DNA from: a virus | Lineage: Duplodnaviria > Caudoviricetes | Strand: one strand, 5' to 3' | DNA: 64,000 nt | IMG/VR virus record: IMGVR_UViG_3300044981_000214 | Shown here: positions 8,386 through 57,337 of the stretch, piece by piece | Position numbering within the stretch: the stretch's first letter is position 1 | Layout of the letters: each line of letters starts with the position of its first letter | Program-made: the position numbers and the translations under genes | Notes under the pieces: model-generated | What the model was told of the DNA's origin: nothing | The model's input: only the letters and a program-made list of their open reading frames with translations | Database searches by the model: none

Positions 8386-9264
8386 TCAGCCCTTTCTTCG
8401 TATACGCTTACGACGTCGTTGTGTGCCAAAGCCGGAATTCATACGACGTTTGGCTATGTAGTAAGCTGTATAGCCAATCAATGCCAAACCTGCTATTGTC
8501 AATATCCCGTAGATTATCTGTTGTCCCTTAGTCAACGACCCTGCGGTAGCTGCAACCCCACCTTGTTCGAGATCTGCGTCACCAGGACCTATGCTCGTAT
8601 CCGTGCTCGCACTTCCCGAAGCATCAATTGTTGCTTGTTGTACAACCGCGCCCGATCCCATCGTTGCATTGTTAATCAATGACAGATACAAATTTTGTGC
8701 AAACGGTACGGCGCCGGCTGCCTGGAAATGGACACCGTCAGCTGTACGATTATCGGTGCTGGATATAAGGCGGCTATCGATTACATGATCAGCCCCAAAT
8801 ACATTCTGCAGCGTGCTATAGACTACTTGAGCTTGGGCATTACGATTTGCATCAGCAAATATGGGCGGTCCGATTGCCCATGCCTCGGCGTTAGGGAAAG
8901 CTTGACGGATTTGAGTAAAGGCGTTGGCATCTGCAGTAGGATCGAGCCCAAGGTCATTGGTACCAAGAAATACGACTAACTGTGTAGGAGAAAAAACTTG
9001 GTCGGAACTAATCAAGTCTACACCAGTATGAAACTGATACCGTGCACCACCAGTCCAGAAATTTGGCGCAGACCTGCTAACGTTGGCATCGATACGAACG
9101 CCTTGTGCACCGTTTTCCCATAGCATGGACGCTAACAAGTCGCCGGGAGCGGAGCTAGCACGCGTTGAACCTTGATTTACGTCCCAGATTTCTGGATCCG
9201 AGTCAAGACCGTGATGGGAAAGTGAGTCTCCGAACAGCAGTATGCGTTCGCCTTGAACGTTCAC
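8386..9264 (-). CDS. SGNH/GDSL hydrolase with C-terminal TM anchor
   Basis: FGDSL (block I), LGTND (block III), DGVH (block V); TM followed by KRR...GFG...RRRKRIRRK. Confidence 0.85.
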   Translation of the reverse strand: MNVQGERILLFGDSLSHHGLDSDPEIWDVNQGSTRASSAPGDLLASMLWENGAQGVRIDANVSRSAPNFWTGGARYQFHTGVDLISSDQVFSPTQLVVFLGTNDLGLDPTADANAFTQIRQAFPNAEAWAIGPPIFADANRNAQAQVVYSTLQNVFGADHVIDSRLISSTDNRTADGVHFQAAGAVPFAQNLYLSLINNATMGSGAVVQQATIDASGSASTDTSIGPGDADLEQGGVAATAGSLTKGQQIIYGILTIAGLALIGYTAYYIAKRRMNSGFGTQRRRKRIRRKG

Positions 9265-10631
9265 GGCTTAACCTCATGGCGCTTCATTTCTCGATAAACA
9301 CGCTTGGTTTCTACATCCTCGCGATCGACAGGCTTGTGCTTGTTAGCATATTTCTCAACACCGCTCTTAACTCTAGCTATCGTGTTGCCTGTGAAGATGC
9401 GCCTGAACCCAGTCCCATCGTCAAGCAATCCTTCAAATTTGCGTTGCGGGTTAAGGTCTGCATTAGGACGTACAATAACAGCAAAACCGTTAATCGTGTC
9501 CTCCCAGCTGTCTGGGTTTTCCTCGGTCCATTCGGAGAGCATCCGTCTACGTCGTGTAGGTTTCTTATGTCGCCCCAACGCAACCGCAGCACGTTTCCTA
9601 GTGTAATAATACGCACCGTACCCCAACAGCCCCAGTCCAACAATCGCGCCTGCGATCGTTGCATAATGCCAAAATACACCCCACGGGCTTCCAGAAGCGC
9701 GATCAGGGCCAGGATCCTGTGCATCAGAGCCCGGGTCAGCTCCACTTGAGTCACTTGGCGGTGGTATCAGCGCCATATCTGTAGAGTTATCCCCGCCGCT
9801 GTCCGAGCTACATACAGGCATGTCAGCGGGCCATACAGGGCGATTGGTAGCTATGCCATTGACATAGCCCGGATTCGCATAGGCTTGAAGTGCTCGTTGT
9901 ATTAACGCTTGGCCGTCAGTAGAAGCATAAGAAAAAGGGTATCGCTTTAATACTGCCAATCGATAATGATCTACACCTGGAAGCAAGCCTACCCAAAAAC
10001 AACCATTTGGGACTGGAGTAGCGCAGCCCTTCTGATCGCAACACATTGCGTAGTTGTTGATGACGTTCGGGATACTCGGGAAATACTTTTGATACTCCCA
10101 ACCGTCTTGGTCGTTGCCACCACCAGTGAAGTTGTTGCTCTGCCCGGAGAGCACAAAATTAGCAATGATCGCAGCGAGAAAAGACGGGTCCTGAGATGAA
10201 GAGGTCCATCTCCCAGTTGACCCTCCTTGAATTTCGCCGAATAGACCACTATGAGATGTCAAAACGAGCTGAGATACAGTTTGCCCTCGCTGGGCAGCCT
10301 GATTGACGGTTGTTTCGGCTAATGCAACACGTGTCTCGGCCGTCGAGGCTCCAACTTCACTTTGAATATTTCTTGCTAGAGCATAAACGTCCGCTGATAA
10401 AGCTTGACTACTAGGCCATTCAGGCAACCCTGAAGCTTGAAGCTGTTGCTCGGCTGCGGCACGTAAAGCTTCAGGGTTACACGGTATATCGCCTGCTGCA
10501 TTAAGTGCACAACCCGAACTGATGCTAGCTTCATAGTTCGGTTGACCTACAAGCGGCGCTAATTGGCTATGCCAAGTAGGGTAACAAGTAGGATCGGCGT
10601 CACCAAAATAGCCGAAATGACCCCATCGCAT
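9261..10631 (-). CDS. SleB/Hydrolase_2-like cell wall hydrolase with C-terminal TM anchor
   Basis: DVYALARNIQSEVG...RVALAETTVNQ resembles the LARxIxxE motif; acidic linker, TM, basic tail. Confidence 0.65.
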   Translation of the reverse strand: MRWGHFGYFGDADPTCYPTWHSQLAPLVGQPNYEASISSGCALNAAGDIPCNPEALRAAAEQQLQASGLPEWPSSQALSADVYALARNIQSEVGASTAETRVALAETTVNQAAQRGQTVSQLVLTSHSGLFGEIQGGSTGRWTSSSQDPSFLAAIIANFVLSGQSNNFTGGGNDQDGWEYQKYFPSIPNVINNYAMCCDQKGCATPVPNGCFWVGLLPGVDHYRLAVLKRYPFSYASTDGQALIQRALQAYANPGYVNGIATNRPVWPADMPVCSSDSGGDNSTDMALIPPPSDSSGADPGSDAQDPGPDRASGSPWGVFWHYATIAGAIVGLGLLGYGAYYYTRKRAAVALGRHKKPTRRRRMLSEWTEENPDSWEDTINGFAVIVRPNADLNPQRKFEGLLDDGTGFRRIFTGNTIARVKSGVEKYANKHKPVDREDVETKRVYREMKRHEVKP

Positions 10632-10651
10632 GAGAGCTAGTGTATCACAGC

Positions 10652-10680
10652 TTGACGGTCTATCGACTTAACTATATGAT
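10652..10680 (+). promoter_or_regulatory. sigma70-type promoter
   Basis: TTGACG-N17-TATGAT, with AGGAG RBS before 10710. Confidence 0.6.
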
Positions 10681-10709
10681 GCTGCTCAATAACTAGGAGT
10701 TAATGAAAA

Positions 10710-10931
10710 ATGCCCCGCGCACAACAGCAACAACAAACTGACGATAACTATGAAATCGTTCCCAATAATGAACGAACACCGGCCATGCTACGAGAAATAG
10801 CCCAGCGAACCAAACTTCGTACATTGGCTGATATGTCTGAGACTGAGATACGTGCACTTGAAAAATTGTACGGTGCTAAGATCATAAGGCCATCGAAACG
10901 TAAGACTAAGCGAGTTAGACTCGTGAAATAA
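10710..10931 (+). CDS. hypothetical basic protein
   Basis: promoter and RBS present. Confidence 0.6.
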   Translation: MPRAQQQQQTDDNYEIVPNNERTPAMLREIAQRTKLRTLADMSETEIRALEKLYGAKIIRPSKRKTKRVRLVK

Positions 10932-11221
10932 TGTCTTCTACGGAAATCGCACCTATAGCTATCGCTTTCGCTGACCTGATCGACCGCATCAAAGCAGTCT
11001 GCCCGGAGGCAGCATTACTCGGTGAAGGGCCGTCGATCGGGATTGCGAACCCAAAAAGCATTTTGCCGCCCGGGACGCTAATTCTAGACGATTTGATGTT
11101 CAAAGCGGAATGCAGCGAAATATTTTCTCGATTCGATATTCCACATTACAAAGAAGCTGACGGGGTCCTGATTATGCGACCCAAGCCAATACCTCGCCCG
11201 CAAGAAGACAACGGGAACTGA
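10931..11221 (+). CDS. hypothetical protein
   Basis: TAATG coupling. Confidence 0.55.
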   Translation: MSSTEIAPIAIAFADLIDRIKAVCPEAALLGEGPSIGIANPKSILPPGTLILDDLMFKAECSEIFSRFDIPHYKEADGVLIMRPKPIPRPQEDNGN

Positions 11222-11227
11222 AGGTGA

Positions 11228-11461
11228 CTATATGAGGTCGTCATATTTCCCAGTATCTTCTCGTGGCCCTACAATTCGAGAAGGAAATATCCAATATCGA
11301 TCAGGGTGTCTGTGTAACAAATAGTATCTCGGGTCATCCCGATCGTGACAGCGTAACGCATACCCTGCGTTTTCTGCAATTGTGCTAGCCAAATCATGTT
11401 GCCCAACATGTAGGCAAGCTTGCAAGGCGTGCAGCAGTTCAAGAATAGATTCGAAGGTCAT
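11228..11461 (-). CDS. ELLxALQA-module family protein
   Basis: LELLHALQACLHVGQHDLASTIAENAGY. Confidence 0.75.
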   Translation of the reverse strand: MTFESILELLHALQACLHVGQHDLASTIAENAGYALRCHDRDDPRYYLLHRHPDRYWIFPSRIVGPREDTGKYDDLI

Positions 11462-11757
11462 TAGAATAACTTCTGACGTTCATAACCGTAGGACATTCTA
11501 TACACGCCATCAGCTGTTATACGATAGGATAACTTCCATAAATGTTCCTGCCGGTGGATCGTGTAATAATGTTGGCTAAGCCAATTCTCGTTGGTCCACT
11601 CACTAAACACCCATCCTGCATCCTCTGCAAGCGCGTGAGCCAATTTGGGCTGCCTAGCGTTGAAACAAGCTTGGAGCGCGTGCAGTAGCTCAAGTAGCTT
11701 GTTGTTCTCCTCAAGGATTGTAGATGTGGCCTGTTCTGTCATAGCTGACAATTTCAT
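11461..11757 (-). CDS. ELLxALQA-module family protein
   Basis: LELLHALQACFNARQPKLAHALAEDAGW. Confidence 0.75.
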   Translation of the reverse strand: MKLSAMTEQATSTILEENNKLLELLHALQACFNARQPKLAHALAEDAGWVFSEWTNENWLSQHYYTIHRQEHLWKLSYRITADGVYRMSYGYERQKLF

Positions 11758-11962
11758 CCATGTAGACCACGTGACGTGGACGAGGGTTTGCCTTCCCTAC
11801 TTCCTTTATAGGCCGTAGTTCATAACACCGTTGCCCTTGATTATCCCACAACGCTATCAGCCACCATCCATAATCATGGACTATGCACCTTGCTAAGTTA
11901 TACGATTCTCCAGTACGGAGAAGCGCTTGTACCGCTTGGAGTAACTCGTTAGAGAGCGTCAT
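11711..11962 (-). CDS. ELLxALQA-module family protein
   Basis: NELLQAVQALLRTGESYNLARCIVHDYGW. Confidence 0.75.
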   Translation of the reverse strand: MTLSNELLQAVQALLRTGESYNLARCIVHDYGWWLIALWDNQGQRCYELRPIKEVGKANPRPRHVVYMDEIVSYDRTGHIYNP

Positions 11963-12288
11963 GTAAGTGTAGTAGCTTCACCCGCTAACACCCAATTGTC
12001 CGCTAGGCTTCTCCGTGATAAAAATATAACCCGATTCTGATCTGGATTGACTAGATATCCTCTATTGTCAGAGGTCATGATCCAATTTCTTGGCCCGCGA
12101 ATACTCAACGGAGCCCAACGAGTGAATACATGATCGGTACTTGTACCTGATGCAGTTCCCCAGTCAGCGAACGTCAAACGCCAATTAAGCGCTACAGCAA
12201 ACACCATCGCTTCAGCGCGCTTGATATGAATTAACGCCTGTATAGCGTTTATCAGTTCGATGTCGTTATCAATAACAGAGAGACTCAT
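11959..12288 (-). CDS. ELLxALQA-module family protein
   Basis: IELINAIQALIHIKRAEAMVFAVALNW. Confidence 0.7.
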   Translation of the reverse strand: MSLSVIDNDIELINAIQALIHIKRAEAMVFAVALNWRLTFADWGTASGTSTDHVFTRWAPLSIRGPRNWIMTSDNRGYLVNPDQNRVIFLSRRSLADNWVLAGEATTLT

Positions 12289-12737
12289 TTTAGTTCTCGC
12301 TCTGGATCGCCGATAGCACGTCGTAGGAGATTAGCTAAGCCGTTAGCCAACGGTGCGGTCCAGAATGTCGTCTTGCGTGCGTTCGTCAGTTTGTCTAGGA
12401 CCTTTATGATTTCACGAATCGACTCGGCCGTAGTAGGATAATGCGCGCCACAGGCGTCAGCTACTGCTGTTGTAGCCCTTCTGGCAATTTCTTTCTGTTG
12501 GTTCTGTTCTAGTTCTCTCAGATTCAACCACGGACGGTCATCCATACCACTGCCCCAACACTTGTCACAGACGTCGACCGACATAGCTTGCCCGCCTATT
12601 CCCCTGCGCCATCCAGAGGTATTCCCGTACATCTTAGTGCCTAAGCCTGCACACTGTTCGCACGCGTCATCTTCGTTCCGAATGCCTCGCTGTCGCAGTA
12701 GGTCTCGCCAGGCTTCGTCGTAATCGGCGCTACTCAT
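12285..12737 (-). CDS. DnaJ-type zinc-finger protein
   Basis: CEQCAGLG...CDKCWGSG. Confidence 0.65.
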   Translation of the reverse strand: MSSADYDEAWRDLLRQRGIRNEDDACEQCAGLGTKMYGNTSGWRRGIGGQAMSVDVCDKCWGSGMDDRPWLNLRELEQNQQKEIARRATTAVADACGAHYPTTAESIREIIKVLDKLTNARKTTFWTAPLANGLANLLRRAIGDPERELK

Positions 12738-12985
12738 TTGTAGTCCTCTTCTTTAGTTGAGATTACAAACTTTATGCGTTCGGAGCTTACTGAGAAGGTT
12801 TCAGGAATAACCGCGGATCCATTGGACATTTCCAGTTCCTGTTGTTTCTGTAATAATAAACAAAAGGACGATGCATCCATGAACGGGATCACACGCCACC
12901 CAGCAGCTCTGGCTATAGCGTCGGCTTGGTCGTAGTGTCGAATCTTCAGCAAAGCTTGAATAGCGTTAAGGAGTTCGTCATCCAT
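12734..12985 (-). CDS. ELLxALQA-module family protein
   Basis: DELLNAIQALLKIRHYDQADAIARAAGW. Confidence 0.75.
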   Translation of the reverse strand: MDDELLNAIQALLKIRHYDQADAIARAAGWRVIPFMDASSFCLLLQKQQELEMSNGSAVIPETFSVSSERIKFVISTKEEDYK

Positions 12986-13211
12986 GAAATGAAGAGGGAT
13001 CGAGTAAATCTGTAAAATCATCGGGGCTGATCATAATGATGTGTTCGCGGTTCCAACTATTACCGGCTTGTGCAATACGTAGGTACCATCCATCAGAATA
13101 TTTCCAAGCTTGAGCCTCCCAGCCGGCAAATACAGCCAAGTCTTTGGCTTGGCTTATCTCGCCAAGCTTTAACAAAGCTTGAATCGCGTGGATAAGCTCG
13201 ATCGGGAGCAA
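12978..13211 (-). CDS. ELLxALQA-module family protein
   Basis: IELIHAIQALLKLGEISQAKDLAVFAGW. Confidence 0.75.
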   Translation of the reverse strand: MLPIELIHAIQALLKLGEISQAKDLAVFAGWEAQAWKYSDGWYLRIAQAGNSWNREHIIMISPDDFTDLLDPSSFHG

Positions 13212-13217
13212 ACCATC

Positions 13218-13739
13218 TTACTTTCGAGCTTGAAGCTTCGGACGTACCTTTGAGGCTCCTGTGCGAGGCATTTTCTTCACAACTTTACGTGCCACGCGTG
13301 AATTTATCACCGGCTGACTCGCCGCGGTGGTGGAGCCTATTTTCTTATGGTGGCTGCGTTTGGCAGGAACGAGTTGAGTATTGGCTTGCTTGGTTGGTTG
13401 CTTATTTCTCAAGTATGCAGAGACATCAGGAGGGTCTTTAGCGTTGCCCTCTTGTGTATGGAAAACGTCGCAGGCAAGCTTTGCTGAATCGAAGGCCATC
13501 TGGGCGTCGCGTCTGGTAAGGGCGCAGTTATGCCAGGCATCGCGTGCAAGTATGTCCTGCCAATAGGCGACTTTACAAGTCAGGTTAGGACAGCCTTTCG
13601 CTGCATCACCAGCTTTTCGAGCCGCTTCGATTTTCTGTTTTAGCCGTTCGGCTGTGCGTGCCCATTCTTCAGATAACCGTAGGGCTTGTTCGAGGTCTTC
13701 TTGGAGCGTTTTTGGGGGCTTGAGGGTGTGGAGGGTCAT
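13218..13739 (-). CDS. coiled-coil protein with basic C-terminus
   Basis: ATGA coupling at 13739. Confidence 0.6.
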   Translation of the reverse strand: MTLHTLKPPKTLQEDLEQALRLSEEWARTAERLKQKIEAARKAGDAAKGCPNLTCKVAYWQDILARDAWHNCALTRRDAQMAFDSAKLACDVFHTQEGNAKDPPDVSAYLRNKQPTKQANTQLVPAKRSHHKKIGSTTAASQPVINSRVARKVVKKMPRTGASKVRPKLQARK

Positions 13740-14398
13740 CGCATCCCTATCTTTTTTGAATTGATTCGGGTTCTCGAACAAGGCCACCCGTTGTCATCCT
13801 GTTGACAAGTTGTTTCTATACTGGGCATATTAGGACGGTACAAGACCCAAATATCAGAACTGTGATAAGGCCATCTGGCAACTCCGCCTGATTTCAGCAT
13901 CACCATTGTCTTTGCTGCAGATTGATATCCGACTTCGAGAGGAACCAGTCGAGGTCCAACGGTAATTATTGGTCCCGGTACTAATTGCTTAGTCTTTACT
14001 ATAGACCCTCCAAGGTGAATATGATCATACCATCCGAAATTACCGTCATGATCATCATTACCGCCTTGGAAATTTGCGTAGAATTGAGGCGATAACTGTT
14101 CAAGCTTGGCGTTGTTCTCCTCTGTAGCCCTGTCGTTGCCAGGAGTCTCGCCAAGAGATATTCGGGCTATGCGTGTCCGTCCTCGCATAATATCGGCATA
14201 GACCAAAATGAATGCATAAGCATCAGTAAACGTAATAGGCCAACGATCCCATTTTTGGAATATTGCATCTACAAGCGCAGGTTCATAAGGTTTCTTGGCA
14301 TTCAATTTACTTAACACTTGTGCGATCGTTGTTGCCAATTCAGGTTCAACAGCAAGTCTTTTGGACATTGCAGCTTCAAGTTCAGTCTCATAGCTCAT
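13736..14398 (-). CDS. hypothetical protein
   Basis: 220-aa ORF downstream of the recombinase. Confidence 0.65.
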   Translation of the reverse strand: MSYETELEAAMSKRLAVEPELATTIAQVLSKLNAKKPYEPALVDAIFQKWDRWPITFTDAYAFILVYADIMRGRTRIARISLGETPGNDRATEENNAKLEQLSPQFYANFQGGNDDHDGNFGWYDHIHLGGSIVKTKQLVPGPIITVGPRLVPLEVGYQSAAKTMVMLKSGGVARWPYHSSDIWVLYRPNMPSIETTCQQDDNGWPCSRTRINSKKIGMR

Positions 14399-14404
14399 CG
14401 TGTT

Positions 14405-15403
14405 CTATCCTAGTTCCTTAGGCAAAATGCCTGCGGCAGATGTATTCGTTAGATCTGTTGTGTAATGGTCGATGATAGCGTCTGATAGTTGACCCGTAAT
14501 TCGCTTGATTTGATATATAGGAACGCCTCGTGCAACCATGTAACTAATAAACGAGTGACGCATTACGTGAGGGGTTACACCTGTGACTCCTGCAAGACGG
14601 GCTCTTTTTTTTACAGCTTCATATATACCTTCATCTGTAAGCGGCCCTACGAGTTCATCGCTGTTGCGTTTGAATGCTCTAAAAAACGGCCCTGTATTAA
14701 CCCCGTATCGTTTAATTAACACGTCTTGCCATGCGTTTACAGCCTTTATACAAGCTGCATCAAGAGGTACCTCCCAACGACGCTTCCCCTTAAGCTGAAT
14801 CTCTACAACCGCCTCTTTGGTTCTGTACGAAGTTTTGAAGTCCGTGAGTAGAATGCCTGCCATACCTGATCTACGCATTCCTGTCCGAAAACCAAGGACT
14901 AGTATCGCAAAGTCTCTTACATCTCTCGGATTATTACTCCGACAGGTATTTAATATAGCAGCTGCGGAAGACTCAGGAATAGCATACCTATTCTTTTTAC
15001 TCTCTTCCTTCTTTAGTTTAAGCCCGTCGGCGAAGTCATATTTGGCTATACTCTCCCCCGCTCGTTTGACACGTAACGCGTAGGCTCTAGAAACCCAACG
15101 AATGGCCTTAGTATAAAGGAGTACGCTTTGTGGGCTTAGCGGCGCAGGCGCTCGTCGTCTACGGTCACTGCTTATTAGGTTAAGTTCAAGGCCCGAGGCT
15201 GACAATTTCTTTCGCCAATCCTGTACGGCTGCAGTTGTCCAGTCTTTGCGTGCCCCACCAGCAAAGGCTATAAAGTCTCGGATTGCACGTTCATACAGGC
15301 GAGATGTTTCAGGGCTAAAGTCGTCTTTATTAGCTTCTAATGTCGTTAACAGAGTCTCCGTCGGCACGGCTTTTACCCTCTCATAGCGAAACCCTAAAGT
15401 CAA
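14405..15403 (-). CDS. XerC/D-like tyrosine recombinase (start probably GTG at 15367)
   Basis: RDFAILVLGFRTGMRRS (R), KGKR (K), PHVMRH (HxxR), TGQ, DHYT (catalytic Y). Confidence 0.9.
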   Translation of the reverse strand: MTLGFRYERVKAVPTETLLTTLEANKDDFSPETSRLYERAIRDFIAFAGGARKDWTTAAVQDWRKKLSASGLELNLISSDRRRRAPAPLSPQSVLLYTKAIRWVSRAYALRVKRAGESIAKYDFADGLKLKKEESKKNRYAIPESSAAAILNTCRSNNPRDVRDFAILVLGFRTGMRRSGMAGILLTDFKTSYRTKEAVVEIQLKGKRRWEVPLDAACIKAVNAWQDVLIKRYGVNTGPFFRAFKRNSDELVGPLTDEGIYEAVKKRARLAGVTGVTPHVMRHSFISYMVARGVPIYQIKRITGQLSDAIIDHYTTDLTNTSAAGILPKELG

Positions 15404-15429
15404 CCCTGATAACTTGAATTACCAGGGTA
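15402..15429. promoter_or_regulatory. dif-like recombination site (11-6-11)
   Basis: AACCCTGATAA CTTGAA TTACCAGGGTA; near-perfect inverted arms directly upstream of the recombinase. Confidence 0.55.
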
Positions 15430-15464
15430 CCCTCCGGATGTAGTAAATGCCTGAAATCATTAAG

Positions 15465-15492
15465 GAATTTGATCATCTCAGTTATGCGATTA
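15465..15492 (-). promoter_or_regulatory. second dif-like site
   Basis: TAATCGCATAA CTGAGA TGATCAAATTC; left arm resembles a XerC arm (..CGCATAA). Confidence 0.35.
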
Positions 15493-15525
15493 TTGTAACG
15501 TCTCAGAACTGCTAAGCTAAATGAA

Positions 15526-15900
15526 ATGGGCCGCAGCGGACCAATCCCTCGTGAGAACGCTTTTTATCGCCTCGCTCCGCGTGATGGCCGCGTGCTGCCC
15601 GTAGTATATGCAACGAAGAAAAACGGGCCGCCGTACGTGTTGTGGCCAGGGCCAGCTGAGCATTTAAGAGAAGGCGATCTAGGATATTTCAAGCGCCACC
15701 CGCTTGCCGGCTACCGCGGTTATATCCCAGTGTTGAAACTTGCCGCAATGGACTATGGTCTTGCTGCAGCAGAAGACCTTGAACGACGTTTAGTAGTTAT
15801 ACCTATCGATGGCGATACCTGGAATTGGGATCGCGCTAACTTGTACTTGATTGCGCGCCGTGACTACTTTTTGCTTTCTCACAATCGACCGTCACGATAG
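15526..15900 (+). CDS. degenerate HNH-like protein
   Basis: VVIPIDGDTWNWDRANL resembles VHHIDGDxxNNxxxNL without the His residues. Confidence 0.5.
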   Translation: MGRSGPIPRENAFYRLAPRDGRVLPVVYATKKNGPPYVLWPGPAEHLREGDLGYFKRHPLAGYRGYIPVLKLAAMDYGLAAAEDLERRLVVIPIDGDTWNWDRANLYLIARRDYFLLSHNRPSR

Positions 15901-15915
15901 GGTTGGGATACGCTC

Positions 15916-16131
15916 ATGAAGAAAAAGCCTAAGTACTGGCGCCACACCGGAGGCGGTTGTGGGCTGACAACGTCGTCGAGACATCCTTGTGACGAAAGCT
16001 ACGAACGTGGCAGCGAACGCGTGACGGTGCTAACGACGTTTGATAGGCACTGGAACATGCCCGAACGTGTCGTGTCGTTATCGCAACTTAAGCGGCTGAA
16101 GGGCGTTGGCACAATCAAGAAAGAGAAATAA
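15916..16131 (+). CDS. small basic protein
   Basis: MKKKPK start. Confidence 0.5.
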   Translation: MKKKPKYWRHTGGGCGLTTSSRHPCDESYERGSERVTVLTTFDRHWNMPERVVSLSQLKRLKGVGTIKKEK

Positions 16132-16684: not shown

Positions 16685-16903
16685 TTAGAAACGCTTGATT
16701 TGCGAACTTTCACGCTGCCACCACTCCGCCTTCGTCGGCACTTCGCTAGGCTTGTGATCGCACGCACACCCGGGGCAACACGCCACCTGGGCGCCTGGCT
16801 TACGATCAGGAAGATTAGTCCAGAAAATTGTAGGTGTACGACATGAGAAACAACGCTCGTATGGCGGCTCAGGATCGTCTTGACGCTGGATGGGTACGCT
16901 CAT
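16685..16903 (-). CDS. zinc-finger hypothetical protein (full copy)
   Basis: CFSC...CCPGC; leaderless behind a GAAATA promoter. Confidence 0.7.
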   Translation of the reverse strand: MSVPIQRQDDPEPPYERCFSCRTPTIFWTNLPDRKPGAQVACCPGCACDHKPSEVPTKAEWWQRESSQIKRF

Positions 16904-16937
16904 ATCAGCTCTACGTTTAACCTAGAAATTCTATTTC
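16904..16937 (-). promoter_or_regulatory. GAAATA-N15-RCGTW promoter (leaderless)
   Basis: GAAATA GAATTTCTAGGTTAA ACGTA GAGCTGAT ATG. Confidence 0.75.
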
Positions 16938-17074: not shown

Positions 17075-17281
17075 TTAAGAAGACAGCGGATCCAAACACC
17101 ACTCCGCCTTCGTCGGCACTTCGCTAGGCTTGTGATCGCACGCACACCCGGGGCAACACGCCACCTGGGCGCCTGGCTTACGATCAGGAAGATTAGTCCA
17201 GAAAATTGTAGGTGTACGACATGAGAAACAACGCTCGTATGGCGGCTCAGGATCGTCTTGACGCTGGATGGGTACGCTCAT
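17075..17281 (-). pseudogene. duplicated copy of 16685..16903 with a replaced C-terminus
   Basis: first 61 aa identical. Confidence 0.7.
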
Positions 17282-17315
17282 ATCAGCTCTACGTTTAACC
17301 TAGAAATTCTATTTC
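17282..17315 (-). promoter_or_regulatory. GAAATA-N15-RCGTW promoter (duplicate copy)
   Basis: identical to 16904..16937. Confidence 0.75.
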
Positions 17316-24630: not shown

Positions 24631-24888
24631 CTACTTAAGCAATTTATCGTTGCACTTGCACGGTTCGCCCCACAAATAGACTCGCCATGCAGTAATGATT
24701 TCGTTCAGCCTTGGGGACGCAAGCGCATCAGCAGCTGTCCACTTTAGCTGTTTGCAGTTGGGACAGCGTTTTTTCTCTAACCGTGCTAGGTCATGTTCAA
24801 TACGACAGTCACGACAAATTCGTGGATTGTATGTAGACTCGCCACACTCCTCACACGCTCGCTCCACGTATTCGTCGTCGTTTGGCAT
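24631..24888 (-). CDS. zinc-finger hypothetical protein
   Basis: several CxxC. Confidence 0.55.
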   Translation of the reverse strand: MPNDDEYVERACEECGESTYNPRICRDCRIEHDLARLEKKRCPNCKQLKWTAADALASPRLNEIITAWRVYLWGEPCKCNDKLLK

Positions 24889-25276: not shown

Positions 25277-25687
25277 ATGGCCCTCTCGAAGAAGACCCGC
25301 CAGGCTCTTAAAGAAACGCCAATTGCCCTTTTCAAGGGTGCTCGCCGAGCAGTCTTTGTCGATGGTGTGACTGAAGAAGAAATACTTCAAGCCATACGTG
25401 CGGCTGCCGGCATACATGAATTCTATTTGGCTAATGACATAGCCGCGCGATACAACTTAGAAATTTGCTGCCGATGCGCATGGCTTGAGAGTTCATGGTC
25501 TGCACTATGCACCCCTAGCAAGCATTCCGCGGTCACAAATAATCATTGGGTTCGAGTATGCTCGGGCTGCGCTCTGTACATACCATCAATTGCACTGGTA
25601 GCTGGTGACGAAGGTGCAGGCGCACGACTACTAGAGAAACTTCACGCGAACGGCGAAGATATCGATGACGAGGACGAGGACGAATGA
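25277..25687 (+). CDS. ELLxALQA-module protein with zinc finger
   Basis: EEILQAIRAAAGIHEFYLANDIAARYNLEICCRC...VCSGC. Confidence 0.7.
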   Translation: MALSKKTRQALKETPIALFKGARRAVFVDGVTEEEILQAIRAAAGIHEFYLANDIAARYNLEICCRCAWLESSWSALCTPSKHSAVTNNHWVRVCSGCALYIPSIALVAGDEGAGARLLEKLHANGEDIDDEDEDE

Positions 25688-27999: not shown

Positions 28000-28374
28000 G
28001 TGCCTGCCTACAATCAAATACAGCAGATTGTTATCGATGTGAGTCCTGAAGGTGCCATGTCTGACATCGTTTTTTCTTTCCATGGCAGTGATCCAAAGCA
28101 AGCACCGATGTGCATAGCCGAGTTTATTCCTGACTCGGCAACGCGGATCAAGTTAGAGAGTCTAGAAATCATGCTAGACAAATGGTTTGCAACCTATAAA
28201 GGCCTATTTAAGTGTGGCAAGCCAACAAAAACCGGGCCTTGTGTCTGTGCTGCAGGACACGATGAATGGGGCTGGTGCCCGTGTGAAAGTAACTCAGAAC
28301 TTGTCTGTTCTGCGTGCGGTCTTAGCTGTGATCATGTAGACCAAGCACACGTATTTTCGGTACAAGCAAAATGA
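28000..28374 (+). CDS. Cys-rich hypothetical protein
   Basis: RBS AAGGAG. Confidence 0.55.
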   Translation: MPAYNQIQQIVIDVSPEGAMSDIVFSFHGSDPKQAPMCIAEFIPDSATRIKLESLEIMLDKWFATYKGLFKCGKPTKTGPCVCAAGHDEWGWCPCESNSELVCSACGLSCDHVDQAHVFSVQAK

Positions 28375-28853
28375 TTTGTCTTGAATGCAACGAAGTTTTC
28401 GCGCCTAGAATTTGCAAATGCGCGGGCGCAAGTCTAGGAAAGCGGTCCATTTGCAACGATTGTTGCGATTGTGGTGCAGCTACGATGACCTTTGAAGATC
28501 GTTTGGCAAAAATAGACAACCTGCACGAAAAATCCTTGGAAGCGTTTGTAAATCTGCAATTTTGCCCTCATTGTGATCAGCCGCGGGCAACCGCACCCGA
28601 GCACACGCCATGCCTCCCTATTAACTGTCCGACCTGTGATAATTTCTGTCACGGACTATTTGAAAACGGCGTGTGTACTAACCCTCCTGGACGCTCGGCA
28701 CCAGGAAAACGTAGGCTATTAAATCACATTGTACAGCTCGCTGTAGCGATCAAGAACTGTGACGGCAGCTATGAGAATCTCAAGCGCCTCACAACCGAGA
28801 TGAATAAGGTCACCGCTGAGTACATGAAATCTCCCGAGGACGAAAATGCTTAA
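28371..28853 (+). CDS. Cys-rich zinc-binding protein
   Basis: CPHC..CPTCDNFC..LFENGVCTNP, shared with 35148..35447. Confidence 0.65.
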   Translation: MICLECNEVFAPRICKCAGASLGKRSICNDCCDCGAATMTFEDRLAKIDNLHEKSLEAFVNLQFCPHCDQPRATAPEHTPCLPINCPTCDNFCHGLFENGVCTNPPGRSAPGKRRLLNHIVQLAVAIKNCDGSYENLKRLTTEMNKVTAEYMKSPEDENA

Positions 28854-35147: not shown

Positions 35148-35447
35148 TCATGCCTTCATCTCACGAATCTTGTGTGCCAACACGACAAGACGATCGGCTG
35201 TCGGGCCCGAATGATGTGCACTAGCTGCATCCATGAGCGCATCGTGGATATCGCGCCAATCGTCAGCTGTAAAGTTTGGAAAGACGCGATCCGTTTTCTT
35301 ACACGGATTCGTGCACACGCCGTTTTCGAATAACGAATAGCAAAAATTATCACACATAGGACAATCGACAGTAAGGCAATCGTCATGTGCAGCTTCGGCT
35401 GCGAATGGCTGACGGCAGTGCGGGCACGTTGAGGCAGAGTAACTCAC
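35148..35447 (-). CDS. Cys-rich protein, paralogue of a domain in 28371..28853
   Basis: CPHC..CPMCDNFCYSLFENGVCTNP. Confidence 0.65.
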   Translation of the reverse strand: MSYSASTCPHCRQPFAAEAAHDDCLTVDCPMCDNFCYSLFENGVCTNPCKKTDRVFPNFTADDWRDIHDALMDAASAHHSGPTADRLVVLAHKIREMKA

Positions 35448-35644
35448 GACCGTGCCCTCGATTTAACGGTCTCGGACATGAAACCGACAAAGTCCCAAAC
35501 ATCAGAGCACCCAATTTCGTTGGTGCCTGTGTCAACCCAGATCATGCCGTTAGCCTCTTCGGTAATAGCGAACCGGAACTGCTTGGCAGTCAGGAAGGCC
35601 CAGGTAACACCCTTGCGGCGGTCATCATCTCGTGTGTTGCGCAT
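35444..35644 (-). CDS. hypothetical protein (leaderless)
   Basis: promoter motif. Confidence 0.6.
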   Translation of the reverse strand: MRNTRDDDRRKGVTWAFLTAKQFRFAITEEANGMIWVDTGTNEIGCSDVWDFVGFMSETVKSRARS

Positions 35645-41523: not shown

Positions 41524-42168
41524 TTACCCCTTCAGTAATTTGATCGCTAGATCTCGTTGCCCGACTGACCAAGCTGCCTCAAAGGCGTTACGGATATCAT
41601 TACCGCGGTGCTGTCGGTTGGTCAGGTCCTTGAAGCGCCAGTTAAGCTCGCTACGATGGATTTTCTCACCGTCCAGATTAGCTATAGCTAACGTCTTGAA
41701 TTCCTCAAGTGTAGTTATACCAAAGACGTAATTCCGTAGTTCAGTTAACCTGGGCAACATGCCGACGATGACAACTAGAATACCAAAATTAGACAGCCCA
41801 AGATTACTAGAATACTTGAATTCATCTAGACTCGTCCTACGCGCCTTCAGCGCACGTTGATATAAGTCTCTATGTCCGGGACGGTTAGCGCCTCTTACTA
41901 CAGCTTTGGGTCCGTCTGAGAAGTCCCGAATAATTTGACTACAACCTAACATGTGCGAGTTGAGTTCCTGAGCCGTATATGGCCAGTCTTTGTCGATCCC
42001 AAAGCTCTTAGCGTATTCATATTCCAGATCGACAATATCAGCGATAAATCCTGCAGCGTTCCGCAAATCCTTGAACTCTTGCGTAAGACTCTCGACCATT
42101 TTTGTGACACGTTTGACTTCTTCCTCGACGACCCAGCTGGCAAGGCGGTTGTAATACTTGTGGCTCAT
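41524..42168 (-). CDS. hypothetical protein with C-terminal ELLxALQA-like module
   Basis: ends NDIRNAFEAAWSVGQRDLAIKLL. Confidence 0.65.
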   Translation of the reverse strand: MSHKYYNRLASWVVEEEVKRVTKMVESLTQEFKDLRNAAGFIADIVDLEYEYAKSFGIDKDWPYTAQELNSHMLGCSQIIRDFSDGPKAVVRGANRPGHRDLYQRALKARRTSLDEFKYSSNLGLSNFGILVVIVGMLPRLTELRNYVFGITTLEEFKTLAIANLDGEKIHRSELNWRFKDLTNRQHRGNDIRNAFEAAWSVGQRDLAIKLLKG

Positions 42169-42213
42169 TAGAGCCAATGTACTTGGCACGAAACAATAAC
42201 CCAAGTCAAGGCC

Positions 42214-43781: not shown

Positions 43782-44054
43782 TCATGCAATAGTCTCTTCG
43801 TCCTTTTCCTGAAACCAAGGGCATGAGAAACAAGGTACAGGCTCTTTGTTGTCGTACCGCGTGTATTTGTGCAAGCAGCTTGCACAAGATCGATATTCGC
43901 TAGTACCGAACACGTAGTTTTCGCAACGCTTCTCCATGTCTCGGTCGCACACTTCATTATGAATGCACTTCGAGCAGTCACTCTCCTTGTCTATCTCGCG
44001 CTTGAAATCGAGAACGCCGTTTGGACCGCGACCATATAACCAGTGCGTCTTCAT
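43782..44054 (-). CDS. Cys-rich protein
   Basis: CSKC.H..VC, CASC.H. Confidence 0.6.
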   Translation of the reverse strand: MKTHWLYGRGPNGVLDFKREIDKESDCSKCIHNEVCDRDMEKRCENYVFGTSEYRSCASCLHKYTRYDNKEPVPCFSCPWFQEKDEETIA

Positions 44055-44725
44055 AGATTCTTTTCTGCCGCCTCTCGTACCTCACGGCGCTTACGTGCAG
44101 CATCAGAGGCTGCAAAGAATGCCTGATGACTCTCGCGTGTCGTCCAGGTCCTAGGCTTGACTACGCCCAGTTGCTTCATACAGAGCATAATAGTCGTCCA
44201 TAGGCGCTTATCTTCAGCGATTTCCGCTGACCATCTACAAGGGTTCTTGCAGTGATAGTCGAAAATCAAGTTCTCGGGAAATCCCTCGAAATAGCATTTG
44301 GCCAGTTCATTGCCAGTATAGTCTGGCTCAAGTGGTGGTGTCGTGTGGAATAGGTACGGGAACAAATCGTGCTCGATTGGCTCGTCGCTCACAACGGATA
44401 GTTTCCAGTTGTAGTAGTTATCGCGCAGGATAAATCGAATGTTCTTATCAGGCCGCTCCAATGAGTAAACAGGCAAGCGAACGCTCTTTGAACGGTGCTC
44501 GCTGATCACCCATGCAGTCAGGCGGCAGCCCTTGCGCGGAGGAGGTTCGCGAGGCAAGTCATCATAGAGCGTATCGGCCCAAAGTAGGCCTGATAACGTA
44601 TCACGTACGAAGTGAACCTGAGGCAGTTGTGCACGCTTATTCGCATCACGCCCTACGTAAATCAGGTCCGTATCCTCATGTTCCTTCAACCACTCGTCGT
44701 ACCAAGCTTGCAGCGCTACACGCAT
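44051..44725 (-). CDS. hypothetical phage protein
   Basis: H.SKSVRLPVY, RDNYYNWKLSV, CYFEGFP. Confidence 0.7.
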   Translation of the reverse strand: MRVALQAWYDEWLKEHEDTDLIYVGRDANKRAQLPQVHFVRDTLSGLLWADTLYDDLPREPPPRKGCRLTAWVISEHRSKSVRLPVYSLERPDKNIRFILRDNYYNWKLSVVSDEPIEHDLFPYLFHTTPPLEPDYTGNELAKCYFEGFPENLIFDYHCKNPCRWSAEIAEDKRLWTTIMLCMKQLGVVKPRTWTTRESHQAFFAASDAARKRREVREAAEKNL

Positions 44726-53696: not shown

Positions 53697-54611
53697 GTGT
53701 TAAATGTCTTGACCTTGGCAGATACAACCGACGCGGCGTGGCTGGTAAAATGCCCTGTATGCGACCGTTCGTTCAAGCGCATAAGTACAGGACATCTAAA
53801 TACACACGGCTTGACCTTGTTACAAGCCCGAGAACGTTTCCCGGGCATGCTAACAGAAGCACCTGAGGCAACCAAGGCTAGAGTAGGGAAGTCGTCGGCA
53901 ACATTACGAGAACGCATAAAGTCCGATCCAGAAGTGGCCGCGTTCTGGGCTGCGCACGGGAAGAAGTTGTATGAAAGGCTAGAAAGAAAAACCACGAAAC
54001 AAGAACGACGAGATCGCTCTATTAATTCCCTCCAAGCTTGGCGGGACACTATGTCGTCGGAAGAACTAAGTGAAACGTCTCGAAAAAGAATGGCAACAGC
54101 GCGTGAACGGTTCCCCGATTTAGCTAGTATGGGCGGCATAGCAGCAGGAGAATTCCAAAGGAAGCCAGAGACCCGGAAAGTGACTTCGAAGCGATTTAAG
54201 AAACTCTGGGAGGACCCTGAGCATCGAGCCAAGGTATCAGCAGCGAATTCGAAGGCGGCGATTGAAGGGCGTATTCCTGTTGTTTTCAATGCATCACGTC
54301 CGACGGAACTTGAGAAACGTTTAATAATCCTGTTCAAGAATTGGGGAATACCGTTCCGATATACAGGAGACGGATCGTTCAGAATTCCAACACCAGATGG
54401 ATGCCGAAATTGGCGAAATCCTGATTTCATCCATACAGACAACATAAAGTCAGCGATCTTATTAGATTCTTATGTTTCAGCAGAACATGATAGCGAGACA
54501 GCAGATTATGCCAACGCAGGGTGGAAGATCCTTAGAATAAACGTAGCCGAGATGAACGATCCCGAATGGCTACAACACAAGCTCCAAATATTTATCGCTG
54601 GCCTAGTTTGA
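53697..54611 (+). CDS. free-standing homing-endonuclease-like protein (Zn finger, helical repeats, Vsr/PD-(D/E)xK-like domain)
   Basis: CPVC..HL..H; NPDF; GWKILRI; opposite strand to its neighbours. Confidence 0.7.
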   Translation: MLNVLTLADTTDAAWLVKCPVCDRSFKRISTGHLNTHGLTLLQARERFPGMLTEAPEATKARVGKSSATLRERIKSDPEVAAFWAAHGKKLYERLERKTTKQERRDRSINSLQAWRDTMSSEELSETSRKRMATARERFPDLASMGGIAAGEFQRKPETRKVTSKRFKKLWEDPEHRAKVSAANSKAAIEGRIPVVFNASRPTELEKRLIILFKNWGIPFRYTGDGSFRIPTPDGCRNWRNPDFIHTDNIKSAILLDSYVSAEHDSETADYANAGWKILRINVAEMNDPEWLQHKLQIFIAGLV

Positions 54612-55281
54612 TGCCGTCGAGAATAATTTCTCGTGCCTTTTTATATTCGCCTGCGTCCATTACCGCTAGGGCGGCATGGCGATAGTCCGATGGCAGTTGC
54701 TCGTAACCCGGGAAGGCTTCAATGCCGCATTCATGTAGGTCCAGTTGAGTCAGACCAGCACGAAGCGCGTCCCTGACGGCGAAACGGACAGCTCTAGCTC
54801 CGCTAGAACTGATTACAGGACGTACAGCATCTTCTGGATCCTCATCAATAATTCGATCTCCTCGCTTATCTCGTATGTGTTCGCTCCAAGTAGCTTGAAC
54901 CATTCCGTCAATAATTGATTCGACAGTACTCTGATTGCGTTGACGATTGACCAGTTCAGTCGACGTAAGCTGAAAAAAGCCTCGAATTTGTTTGTCCGTG
55001 TACCAGTCACGTATAGGTTTGGCAGAAGCACGGACCATATAGGGCTGTAATTTGCAACAAATCGCTCTTGGATAAGTCCCCAACAGATCAGAACGAACAC
55101 TGATCTTACGATCAGCAAGACGCTTCAAAACGGCTATAAGAAATCGTATACGTTCCCAGTCCCAATTGACCAGTTGCTCTACAGCAGTAGCGGCTTGATC
55201 AGCAGTAAGAGTCTCTTGGTAAATCTTGGCAGTCATACTTTCGAGCTTAGCGAAATCGACATCCTTGATACTCACGATCAT
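54592..55281 (-). CDS. hypothetical protein with C-terminal ELLxALQA-like module
   Basis: ends SDYRHAALAVMDAGEYKKAREII. Confidence 0.65.
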   Translation of the reverse strand: MIVSIKDVDFAKLESMTAKIYQETLTADQAATAVEQLVNWDWERIRFLIAVLKRLADRKISVRSDLLGTYPRAICCKLQPYMVRASAKPIRDWYTDKQIRGFFQLTSTELVNRQRNQSTVESIIDGMVQATWSEHIRDKRGDRIIDEDPEDAVRPVISSSGARAVRFAVRDALRAGLTQLDLHECGIEAFPGYEQLPSDYRHAALAVMDAGEYKKAREIILDGIKLGQR

Positions 55282-56939
55282 TATACTTCCTGAACTTTGC
55301 GATTGGCTGTATCTACTATAACCTCAACTCCTTCAGTATATTTCTCCAGTGCCCCAGAAATACGTACCATCGGGAGTAACCGATCGCGGCCGATTTGAGC
55401 CAAGTGTGCGGTAGCGCCACCTTCCTCCGTGATCACCGCACAAGCGTGCGCAGTCGACACTAAATACTTGGGATGCAAGTTGGGCAGGACAACCACGCTA
55501 CCTTCTTCCGAAGGCAAATTAGGCTTGCCGTGCACGACTCGACCGGACGCCCACGGACCGTCAACTAGGACAGTAATGCCTCTTCCAGCTTCACTAAATT
55601 CATTTTGCAGGTCGCGTACTTTATTCATTGCGGCGTCGGCGAGCGGACTTGGATAGTACAGTAATTCACGATTCGCCGGATCAAGACCTGCACCGACCAC
55701 CCAATCTGTATGATCTTGATTATCCAGTGGCATTTTCATGCCTGAGGGACATACGTTCTGCCAGGGTTGAAGAAAATCCTCGTACATCTTCATTTTAGCG
55801 AACGCCCAACGCAGAAAAGGCGCACGCGGTACCTGGACTTTCCCTGCAGGAATATTGCCATTCCTGCCCCAGGCTTTATCGAGTTCGTCTCCCTTGGACT
55901 CTTCCCAAGACAGTTCAAACAAATCACCGTTGGCCTGCTCCAGAATTTGTTTCTGGTATGCAACTAACCGACGCTTGTACAGCTCATCGCGCTCAAGGTC
56001 AATTTGATCTTGTGCTTCCTGAGCAGCACCTTCATCGACGATTTCATGTGAAAGCTCTTCGTCGGAATCCAGTTTATGATCAAGCTCGTTAAGTTCGTCG
56101 AGTTCTTTGGCTAGCGCAAGCTCGGCATTGATCCGTGCATTCATTGGTAACAGGTCAGCCTTCTTGATTGCATCCTGTTCACGTTTAGTGCGCTCAGCGT
56201 TCATGAAAATAGCTTTTGCAACACGCGCAGGTTGCTCAGGAGGGTCACTCGTGACGTCCTTATCGTCAGCGTCTGCCCAAATTTCTTCAGAGGTCGTGCC
56301 GTACCATTTTGAATGGCTACGCTCCTCAAGACCGTGCCCAGCAGCCAAATATTCGTCGAGCGCTTCCTGCGGCCCTCGTGGAGGCGTCAGCCAATGCGGG
56401 CGCTCATTGCAGGCACGAAAAATCGTCTCGCGTGCCAATCCATAAGAGTCTTTGTCAGGATCAGGATATGAGGTATGCTCCGCTACGATTTCGTCTTTAC
56501 TGCAGTAATGCCAAGCGCGATTCTTATAGCCGCGCTGCATGCCAAAACCATAGCGAACTACAGGCTTCTGGTGATCGTTTCGCATATCACGTGGGCCCAT
56601 ATCGCTCACGTAGGCTACCGGACAATACCATCTACCGTTGATTTGGATACGGCCCGCGTAGATATGCTTGACCTGTTCCTGAAAGGATTTGGTAGTGGCT
56701 ACAGGCTCCTTGACGAGCTTCATCCCTGACTCGTTGCCGACGAGACGCTTGGTGCCAGTCAGGATAGACAACGCTGCGTCAGCAACGCCATTATCTCTGT
56801 CGTCACCTTCGCCTTCGTCGTTTAGAAGGCAACTAGCGATGCGCCAAGCCGAACCGGGAGCATCTTCTAACAAGCGTTGGCGAGCTAGATTCGTTAGATT
56901 AGCGCCAGAAATTTGAAAGTGCATAGTAGGCATAATCAC
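55281..56939 (-). CDS. large protein with C-terminal PEP-utilising (phospho-His swivel) domain
   Basis: ASGRV, AVITEEGGATAHLAQIGRD..LPMV, VIVD. Confidence 0.75.
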   Translation of the reverse strand: MIMPTMHFQISGANLTNLARQRLLEDAPGSAWRIASCLLNDEGEGDDRDNGVADAALSILTGTKRLVGNESGMKLVKEPVATTKSFQEQVKHIYAGRIQINGRWYCPVAYVSDMGPRDMRNDHQKPVVRYGFGMQRGYKNRAWHYCSKDEIVAEHTSYPDPDKDSYGLARETIFRACNERPHWLTPPRGPQEALDEYLAAGHGLEERSHSKWYGTTSEEIWADADDKDVTSDPPEQPARVAKAIFMNAERTKREQDAIKKADLLPMNARINAELALAKELDELNELDHKLDSDEELSHEIVDEGAAQEAQDQIDLERDELYKRRLVAYQKQILEQANGDLFELSWEESKGDELDKAWGRNGNIPAGKVQVPRAPFLRWAFAKMKMYEDFLQPWQNVCPSGMKMPLDNQDHTDWVVGAGLDPANRELLYYPSPLADAAMNKVRDLQNEFSEAGRGITVLVDGPWASGRVVHGKPNLPSEEGSVVVLPNLHPKYLVSTAHACAVITEEGGATAHLAQIGRDRLLPMVRISGALEKYTEGVEVIVDTANRKVQEV

Positions 56940-57074
56940 TTGACCGGAAATTTTGCAGAGTCCAAACCAAAACCAAGGATGCGATTTTCAGGCGTTCTCA
57001 CAACACTCGCACTACAAGGCCAACAAACATGCAGCAGCCTGTATGGCATGCCGAACGTCTTCAAGGTCGTTCAT
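56936..57074 (-). pseudogene. internally deleted paralogue of 57071..57337
   Basis: MNDLEDVRHAIQAAA, then in another frame VCWPCSASVVRTPEN (cf. VCFSCRTKVVKMPEN). Confidence 0.55.
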
Positions 57075-57337
57075 AAGTACCTTATTGGATAACTGTTTTC
57101 AGGCATCTTAACAACCTTGGTTCTACAAGAGAAACAGACGCGGCCATCGCTATTTATGCCCATAGTGCAAAGCGCTTCCCCGGACAGGTAGTCGTCTTTA
57201 GGCCTGAGATCATCGGCACAATGCAAACAGATCCACAGTCCTGCACGTATGGATAAATCGTATGCGAGTGCATAGTTTCCCACTGAAGCGACAGCACGGA
57301 TAGCGTGCCGCACGTCTTCAAGCGTATCAGCGTCCAT
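57071..57337 (-). CDS. ELLxALQA-module protein with zinc finger
   Basis: EDVRHAIRAVASVGNYALAYDLSIRAGLWICLHC..VCFSC. Confidence 0.7.
   Translation of the reverse strand: MDADTLEDVRHAIRAVASVGNYALAYDLSIRAGLWICLHCADDLRPKDDYLSGEALCTMGINSDGRVCFSCRTKVVKMPENSYPIRYL

Follow-up and report, generated by a model that had tools for sequence, protein, structure and literature searches.

The window analysed here, a stretch of 64,000 nucleotides (nt) from the IMG/VR virus record IMGVR_UViG_3300044981_000214 (Duplodnaviria; Caudoviricetes), contains at positions 11228 to 13211 an array of small genes whose products begin alike and end differently. Do these proteins share a portable tag that delivers different payloads to one common partner, or does the common segment belong to the fold of one small protein family? 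The array consists of seven co-directional open reading frames (ORFs) on the minus strand, six with a common motif and one without. As far as sequence comparison can tell, our verdict is that the six motif-bearing genes (g1 to g4, g6 and g7) represent a new, lineage-restricted family of orphan paralogues, of a kind that is common in large phages. The claim of about eleven portable modules, which had been made in the initial annotation of this DNA, is thereby cut down to one family of six members and one probable sister family.

All six proteins carry the full motif ELLxAxQALLxxGxxxxAxxxAxxAGW near the N-terminus, which corresponds to an alanine-rich helical hairpin (ELLxAxQALL, a turn containing G, AxxxAxxAGW). 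Its eight-residue core EL[LI]xA[LIV]QA occurs exactly six times in the 1552 six-frame ORFs of the window (85.5k residues) and not a single time in 200 shuffles. A 32-column hidden Markov model (HMM) of the family retrieved the six members from these ORFs with E-values of 1e-16 to 1e-19 (HMMER), and in leave-one-out tests with HMMs of the head region every omitted copy ranked right behind the five training copies (E 2.6e-13 to 2.2e-5). The six-gene array with a common N-terminal module, as originally described, is borne out by the core matches and by the leave-one-out tests. The glutamate and the glutamine of the first predicted helix are invariant across the family. The remaining parts of the proteins, tails of 43-66 residues, showed no detectable similarity among the six in leave-one-out HMM searches (E 6.5 to 230). 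Their description as unrelated holds at this level, except in the pair g1 and g2, where the resemblance of the tails is plain to the eye (YYLLHRH..W versus YYTIHRQ..W). None of the tails contains a domain recognisable in Pfam, PHROGs or NCBIfam; given this lack and their shortness, they are not effector domains, and the proposal that they are variable effectors finds no positive support.

The arrangement of the genes is compact. From the high-coordinate end, g7 (12978-13211; 77 amino acids (aa), TTG start, motif at residues 5-31) is followed by g6 (12734-13021; 95 aa, or 83 aa if the start lies at 12985 as in the public gene call; residues 16-42), by the interrupting gene without the motif (12285-12737), by g4 (11959-12288; 109 aa, residues 11-41, with a longer second helix), g3 (11711-11962; 83 aa, residues 6-33), g2 (11461-11757; 98 aa, or 93 aa from an ATG at 11742; residues 23-49) and g1 (11228-11461; 77 aa, residues 8-34), all on the minus strand. 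All six family ORFs are intact, and their products are acidic to neutral (77-109 aa, isoelectric point (pI) 4.8-6.8). The genes meet in ATGA or 1-nt (TAATG) overlaps, the pattern of a translationally coupled operon; the overlaps of g3 with g2 (47 nt) and of g7 with g6 (44 nt) are longer and both in the +1 frame. The operon also includes the tyrosine recombinase upstream of the array, within a mosaic region of this ~229 kb uncultured soil virus, which agrees with the earlier statement that the array lies just 3' of the recombinase on the same strand. The TTG start of g7 is found 6 nt, or two codons, past the TAA of an upstream gene for a 189-aa protein and in the same frame (13209-13220), which suggests either reinitiation after that gene or a chance match of frames, to be expected in one of three cases.

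How old is the array, and is it under selection? The paralogues are highly diverged in their DNA, as had been noted, with 49-72% identity in helix 1, and at 110 positions of this helix with identical residues only 34% of the codons are shared. This low codon sharing shows that the duplications are old and that the motif has been kept by selection and not by gene conversion. Synonymous sites between the paralogues are near saturation, and the motif is still kept. A comparison over shorter evolutionary distances was provided by a sister strain, represented by the loci L001 and L002, which is collinear with the window from 16130 to 12203 at 96.4% identity. The first 48 codons of g7 differ from L001 by seven synonymous changes and no replacement, the first 28 codons of g4 by six synonymous changes and one replacement, which amounts to 13 synonymous changes and one replacement over 76 motif codons. 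Judged by this ratio, the motif is maintained by purifying selection. The DNA of g6 is identical in the window and in L001 while the flanks differ, a pattern that points to recent recombination.

The copy number of the array varies between strains, from six in the window down to two. Collinearity with L001 breaks off within the second helix of g4 (window position 12203) and leaves a 43-aa g4 stump in L001. A search of L001 with the head HMM found g7, g6 and this stump only; together with the interrupting gene they are what the sister strain retains of the array. Past the breakpoint, L001 (8087-16132) encodes GP88, a trypsin-like protease, an M23 peptidase and R2K-domain proteins, and the GP88, trypsin-like and M23 genes are unmatched in the window. 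In their place the window has genes for SleB-like, SGNH and cysteine-rich cell-wall proteins, and the two sets may be alternative wall-acting cassettes.

A second site of variation is the junction of g7 and g6, which by its sequence is an indel hotspot. After codon 48 of g7, the window and L001 differ by an indel of 12 nt, clustered substitutions and a T4/T5 difference in run length (window 12978-13060; L001 7205-7340). In consequence of the indel and the T-run difference, the reading frame is a different one in each of the window, L001 and a third strain. That of the third strain continues from g7 into g6 and gives rise to a fused two-domain protein of 162 aa (P0005), in which the g6 tail is well conserved. 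The g7 tail thus differs in all three strains, and the unit that is conserved between strains comprises the first 48 residues, which extend beyond the hairpin.

The distribution of the family outside the window is extremely narrow. Copies beyond the window were sought through protein databases. From 5.8 billion clustered proteins, a profile of the six retrieved the fused form and the g4 stump besides the proteins of the window itself, and nothing else. An exhaustive HMMER search of 1.84 billion representative proteins of any length yielded nothing beyond this virus and strains almost identical to it. Among 241 million JGI metagenome records, a pattern scan recovered the L002 contig only. Scans of IMG/VR with the family alignment and with neighbouring proteins of 220 and 456 aa found no relatives, and megablast of positions 9000-16000 against phage and plasmid collections gave no match. 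The motif fused to other domains was not encountered in public data at the thresholds used, including the 1.84 billion proteins.

Is the motif reused elsewhere in the window? This question was addressed with HMMER on the 1552 six-frame ORFs and with hhalign on the 405 ORFs that are 60 residues or longer. Outside the family, the two highest-scoring ORFs of the hhalign comparison both encode zinc-ribbon proteins. The first (57071-57337, minus strand; 88 aa, hairpin at residues 7-38 followed by CxxC-x27-CxxC) has a score of 26.5 (P 2e-4), the second (25277-25687, plus strand; 136 aa, hairpin at residues 35-65 ahead of CxxC-x27-CxxC and an acidic tail) a score of 23.9 (P 1.4e-3), with a background of 17 and below among the 405 ORFs. 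Scaled to ~400 ORFs, these P values correspond to expectations of ~0.08 and ~0.6. HMMER aligned both in the right register, but the E-values of 0.94 (rank 9 of 1552) and 1.7 (rank 10 of 1552) are not significant. The reported presence of the module ahead of zinc fingers is hence supported by hhalign and not by HMMER, and we treat the two proteins as probable distant copies. They are 39% identical to each other, and used as a profile against the family the pair yields P 1.4e-4 with an hhalign probability of 53%. The AlphaFold model of the 57071-57337 product, which is of low confidence, shows a helical hairpin and then a beta-hairpin. The distribution of the pair in the databases is equally narrow. 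A neighbouring segment on the minus strand (56936-57074) had been interpreted as a deleted copy, and it is indeed a truncated, stop-interrupted duplicate of 57071-57337, as is evident from direct repeats of 31 nt (81%) and 44 nt (70%) that are spaced by 257 nt in one and 111 nt in the other. On this evidence the zinc-ribbon pair and the remnant form a probable sister family of the six-gene family.

The module had further been placed at the C-termini of two larger proteins, and neither assignment was confirmed. The C-terminal ~30 residues (54592-54690, minus strand) of a 229-aa protein (54592-55281) reached an hhalign score of 22.6 at rank 8 (P 5e-3 to 1e-2, probability 4-7%; expectation ~2 for ~400 ORFs), which is borderline and makes this copy a doubtful one. 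The C-terminus of the 41524-42204 product was rejected as a copy, with a score of 15.3 at rank 17 (P ~0.1), i.e. within the background. The former count of about eleven copies is accordingly revised to six firm, three probable (one of them a remnant), one doubtful and one unsupported. As a separate observation, the gene for the 229-aa protein lies beside a PEP-utilising-domain gene, and the last 60 residues of its product (54592-54770) show 100% conservation in a homologue whose overall identity is 77%; this suggests a constrained interaction region and has no bearing on homology to the module.

What kind of fold does the motif represent? The six proteins and their neighbours have no significant match in Pfam, PHROGs, NCBIfam or PADLOC, and a profile search of PDB sequences up to an E-value of 10 found nothing. 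For the six proteins PADLOC gave no match at E up to 0.1, a result that leaves room for a distant relationship to defence or immunity families. The initial annotation had not recognised the family of the module, and this stands: no Pfam, PHROG, NCBIfam or PDB family was found. An HMM of the module left the dispersed copies at E ~1, and one half of the refutation named in the initial annotation thereby applies. The suggested resemblance to a TPR-like hairpin does not extend to membership of that family. TPR and Sel1 hairpins are likewise antiparallel two-helix units of ~30 residues with small residues (A or G) at the helix contacts and an aromatic residue near the end. However, TPR, Sel1 and other repeat families gave no match in Pfam at E up to 1 (the six proteins and the two zinc-ribbon fusions) or in NCBIfam, and the family has one motif per protein, with predicted beta strands after a single hairpin and no tandem superhelix.

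An AlphaFold model of g6, calculated from the six-sequence alignment, has a mean predicted local distance difference test score (pLDDT) of 62.6, with values of 76-88 over about residues 11-50. Its predicted elements are two helices (15-26 and 30-39), two strands (42-49 and 52-59) and a further strand at 84-89. In g7 numbering, the first four of these elements span the 48-residue unit conserved among the strains. On the strength of this model, the hairpin is most simply understood as the core of a mini-domain of ~50 residues with the order helix-helix-strand-strand and not as a free tag. Helical periodicity would place the alanines at i and i+3 of helix 1 and at i, i+4 and i+7 of helix 2 at the contact between the two helices. 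Fold searches with the g6 model reached a best E-value of 0.74 in the PDB (Foldseek), a best Z of 4.4 against 48,161 chains (VIA-align), a best E-value of 0.076 in BFVD and a best template modelling (TM) score of 0.54 in the ESM Atlas, to archaeal DUF7108. None of these matches in PDB, VIA-align, BFVD and ESM Atlas is above background at the given model confidence, and a feature search of a protein atlas was without usable match.

The small, acidic to neutral proteins with neither a catalytic motif nor a recognisable domain, the mosaic region, the variable copy number and the old but selected paralogues together lead us to a tentative reading of their function, namely that the six are non-enzymatic binders with an accessory role in host interaction, built from a conserved scaffold with variable C-terminal halves. 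Such binders would act in host takeover, counter-defence or exclusion, and the paralogues would each be directed at another variant of a target. The fold and possibly a common contact surface would come from the conserved hairpin, the specificity from the variable C-terminal halves, and the family would have grown by old tandem duplications within one translationally coupled operon. The earlier idea of a diversified effector or anti-defence system survives in part: for an array whose copy number varies and which lies within mosaic DNA of a large phage, an accessory or host-interacting role is plausible, but effector domains in the tails are not part of it. Several points weigh against the binder interpretation. 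There is no homologue of known role and no fold match in the sequence and structure libraries searched, and the model of the mini-domain is of modest confidence and represents one paralogue only. The tails are not detectably homologous, so that the model and the conservation of g7 are the basis for assuming a common fold outside the hairpin, and the invariant glutamate and glutamine of helix 1 could mark a common binding surface, which would favour a tag.

The proposal that the hairpin is a portable address or docking tag, bringing variable payloads to one common partner, agrees with the conservation of old paralogues in their N-terminal part only and with tails lacking detectable similarity. 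The two invariant residues of helix 1, the hairpin ahead of a zinc ribbon in the best non-family matches and the tolerance of the g7 tail to frame changes between strains would also fit it, and the T-even internal proteins with their common capsid-targeting sequence are a true precedent (PMC3012670). Nevertheless, we consider it unlikely: the dispersed copies are not significant by HMMER, the large-protein fusions are at or near background, fusion partners are absent from 1.84 billion proteins, and no effector domain is recognisable in the tails. Moreover, in the AlphaFold model the hairpin and the two strands that follow it are packed into a single mini-domain, selection on g7 spans 48 residues and thereby exceeds the hairpin, and in the strain with the fused protein conservation is good for the g6 tail, too. 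That the hairpin is an address module which loads diversified small counter-defence proteins, the zinc-ribbon forms included, into the viral particle or onto a single viral or host hub would be decidedly unlikely. Alternatively, the paralogues might assemble with each other via the hairpin, as homo- or hetero-oligomers, into one multi-subunit accessory complex. The in-frame fusion of g7 and g6 into 162 aa is a hint of the Rosetta-stone type in this direction, as are the +1-frame overlaps of 44-47 nt at g3/g2 and g7/g6, and alanine-rich antiparallel helices frequently pack into four-helix bundles. The fusion, however, may be a mere T-run indel, which also yields the third, unfused frame in L001, and L001 manages on two copies, so that we regard an oligomeric complex as improbable. 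A complex prediction for g7 with g6 scored 0.01; as it was run without controls, this is evidence neither way.

Two further explanations are highly improbable in our view. Small DNA-binding regulators with a helix-turn-helix-like hairpin and a beta wing, acting as repressors or as recombination directionality factors for the adjacent recombinase, are suggested by the predicted order of helix-turn-helix and beta-hairpin, which is superficially winged-helix-like, and by the operon shared with the tyrosine recombinase. Against this, the proteins are acidic to neutral, helix 2 is rich in alanine and has no conserved basic or polar reading residues, and no helix-turn-helix family of Pfam, NCBIfam or PHROGs was found even at E up to 1. 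The copies could also be decaying, functionless duplicates in which the motif is a leftover of recent duplication, an explanation for which the g4 remnant in L001, the truncated 56936-57074 copy and the frame-unstable g7 tail may be cited. It is at odds with synonymous sites near saturation in paralogues that keep the motif, with the 13:1 ratio of synonymous to replacement changes between strains and with six intact, translationally coupled ORFs, and it is largely refuted by the substitution pattern.

The gene that interrupts the array between g4 and g6 (12285-12737, minus strand) was absent from the title of the initial annotation and is unrelated to its neighbours. Its 150-aa product has two zinc knuckles (CEQCAGLG and CDKCWGSG) and lacks the family motif. 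Despite two CxxCxGxG strings, its match to Pfam PF00684 (DnaJ_CXXCXGXG) remains below threshold (13.7 bits, the gathering threshold being 32.7; E 0.079). Over residues 12-76 the protein has 45% identity (E ~1e-10) with hypothetical proteins encoded by jumbo Pseudomonas phages that are PA5oct-like. The gene is conserved in L001 (7549-8004) with five synonymous differences and one replacement. The CxxC-x27-CxxC spacing is common to this protein and to the products of 57071-57337 and 25277-25687; homology of the array protein to the zinc ribbons of the fused forms was rejected (hhalign P 0.31). Many other small proteins of the CxxC...CxxC type are encoded in the window (16688-16921, 17078-17299, 28332-28850, 35151-35462, 24634-24888 and 43785-44081). 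The first two of them are a duplicated pair with identical zinc-ribbon segments, each located behind an identical promoter-like motif GAAATA-N16-CGTA (16912-16937 and 17290-17315).

The window has ~49% G+C and short, densely packed genes, among them those for two tyrosine recombinases, TnpB, a DnaB-like helicase, a MoxR-type ATPase with its DUF2201 partner, a ParB-like protein and one tRNA, and in the protein database the virus genes are placed on one contig of 228,894 bp. A scan for generic sigma-70 promoters and terminators revealed no excess over shuffles. A motif GRAAT-N16-18-CGTW, which resembles promoters of the extracytoplasmic function (ECF) type, has 21 sites in the window; the interval from 9.1 to 16.9 kb contains no site. 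The motif was thus rejected as a direct driver of the paralogue array. About 14 of the sites are located on the minus strand at 33999-58731, mostly ~8 nt ahead of an ATG.

New in sequence and lacking detectable relatives in fold, the family belongs to the viral dark matter with clear selection that is harboured by poorly known, very large soil viruses. Its narrow distribution, the lack of a functional handle and the weakly supported reuse of the motif limit what can be inferred from sequence. Jumbo phages carry lineage-specific expansions of small proteins, for example the ~35 zinc-ribbon paralogues of Bacillus phage G (Iyer et al. 2021, PMC7824862), and a comparable array is nrdC.3-nrdC.6 of T4. 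These expansions resemble the six-gene family in being tandem, diverged small paralogues of unknown or accessory function that are found in a large phage and in a single lineage, and the window is, like phage G with its zinc ribbons, also rich in small CxxC proteins. Unlike them, the family has no relation in sequence or fold to these proteins, comprises six copies only, and is conserved in an N-terminal hairpin and not over the whole protein or a metal site.

The T-even phages offer a second comparison. Their internal proteins IPI, IPII and IPIII and the proteins of the corresponding polymorphic locus have nothing but an N-terminal capsid-targeting sequence in common (PMC3012670). In both systems, neighbouring genes of a plastic locus thus encode small proteins that are dissimilar except for an N-terminal segment, and the T4 internal proteins counter host defence, which is the role proposed for the six-gene family. 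In T4 the targeting signal consists of the outermost ~10 N-terminal residues, which the prohead protease removes. The module of the family, in contrast, is ~30 residues long, has its first residue between positions 5 and 23 of the protein and, by prediction, belongs to a folded domain. Similar arrays in other large phages have proved to hold counter-defence genes, which makes the six proteins reasonable candidates for counter-defence screens.

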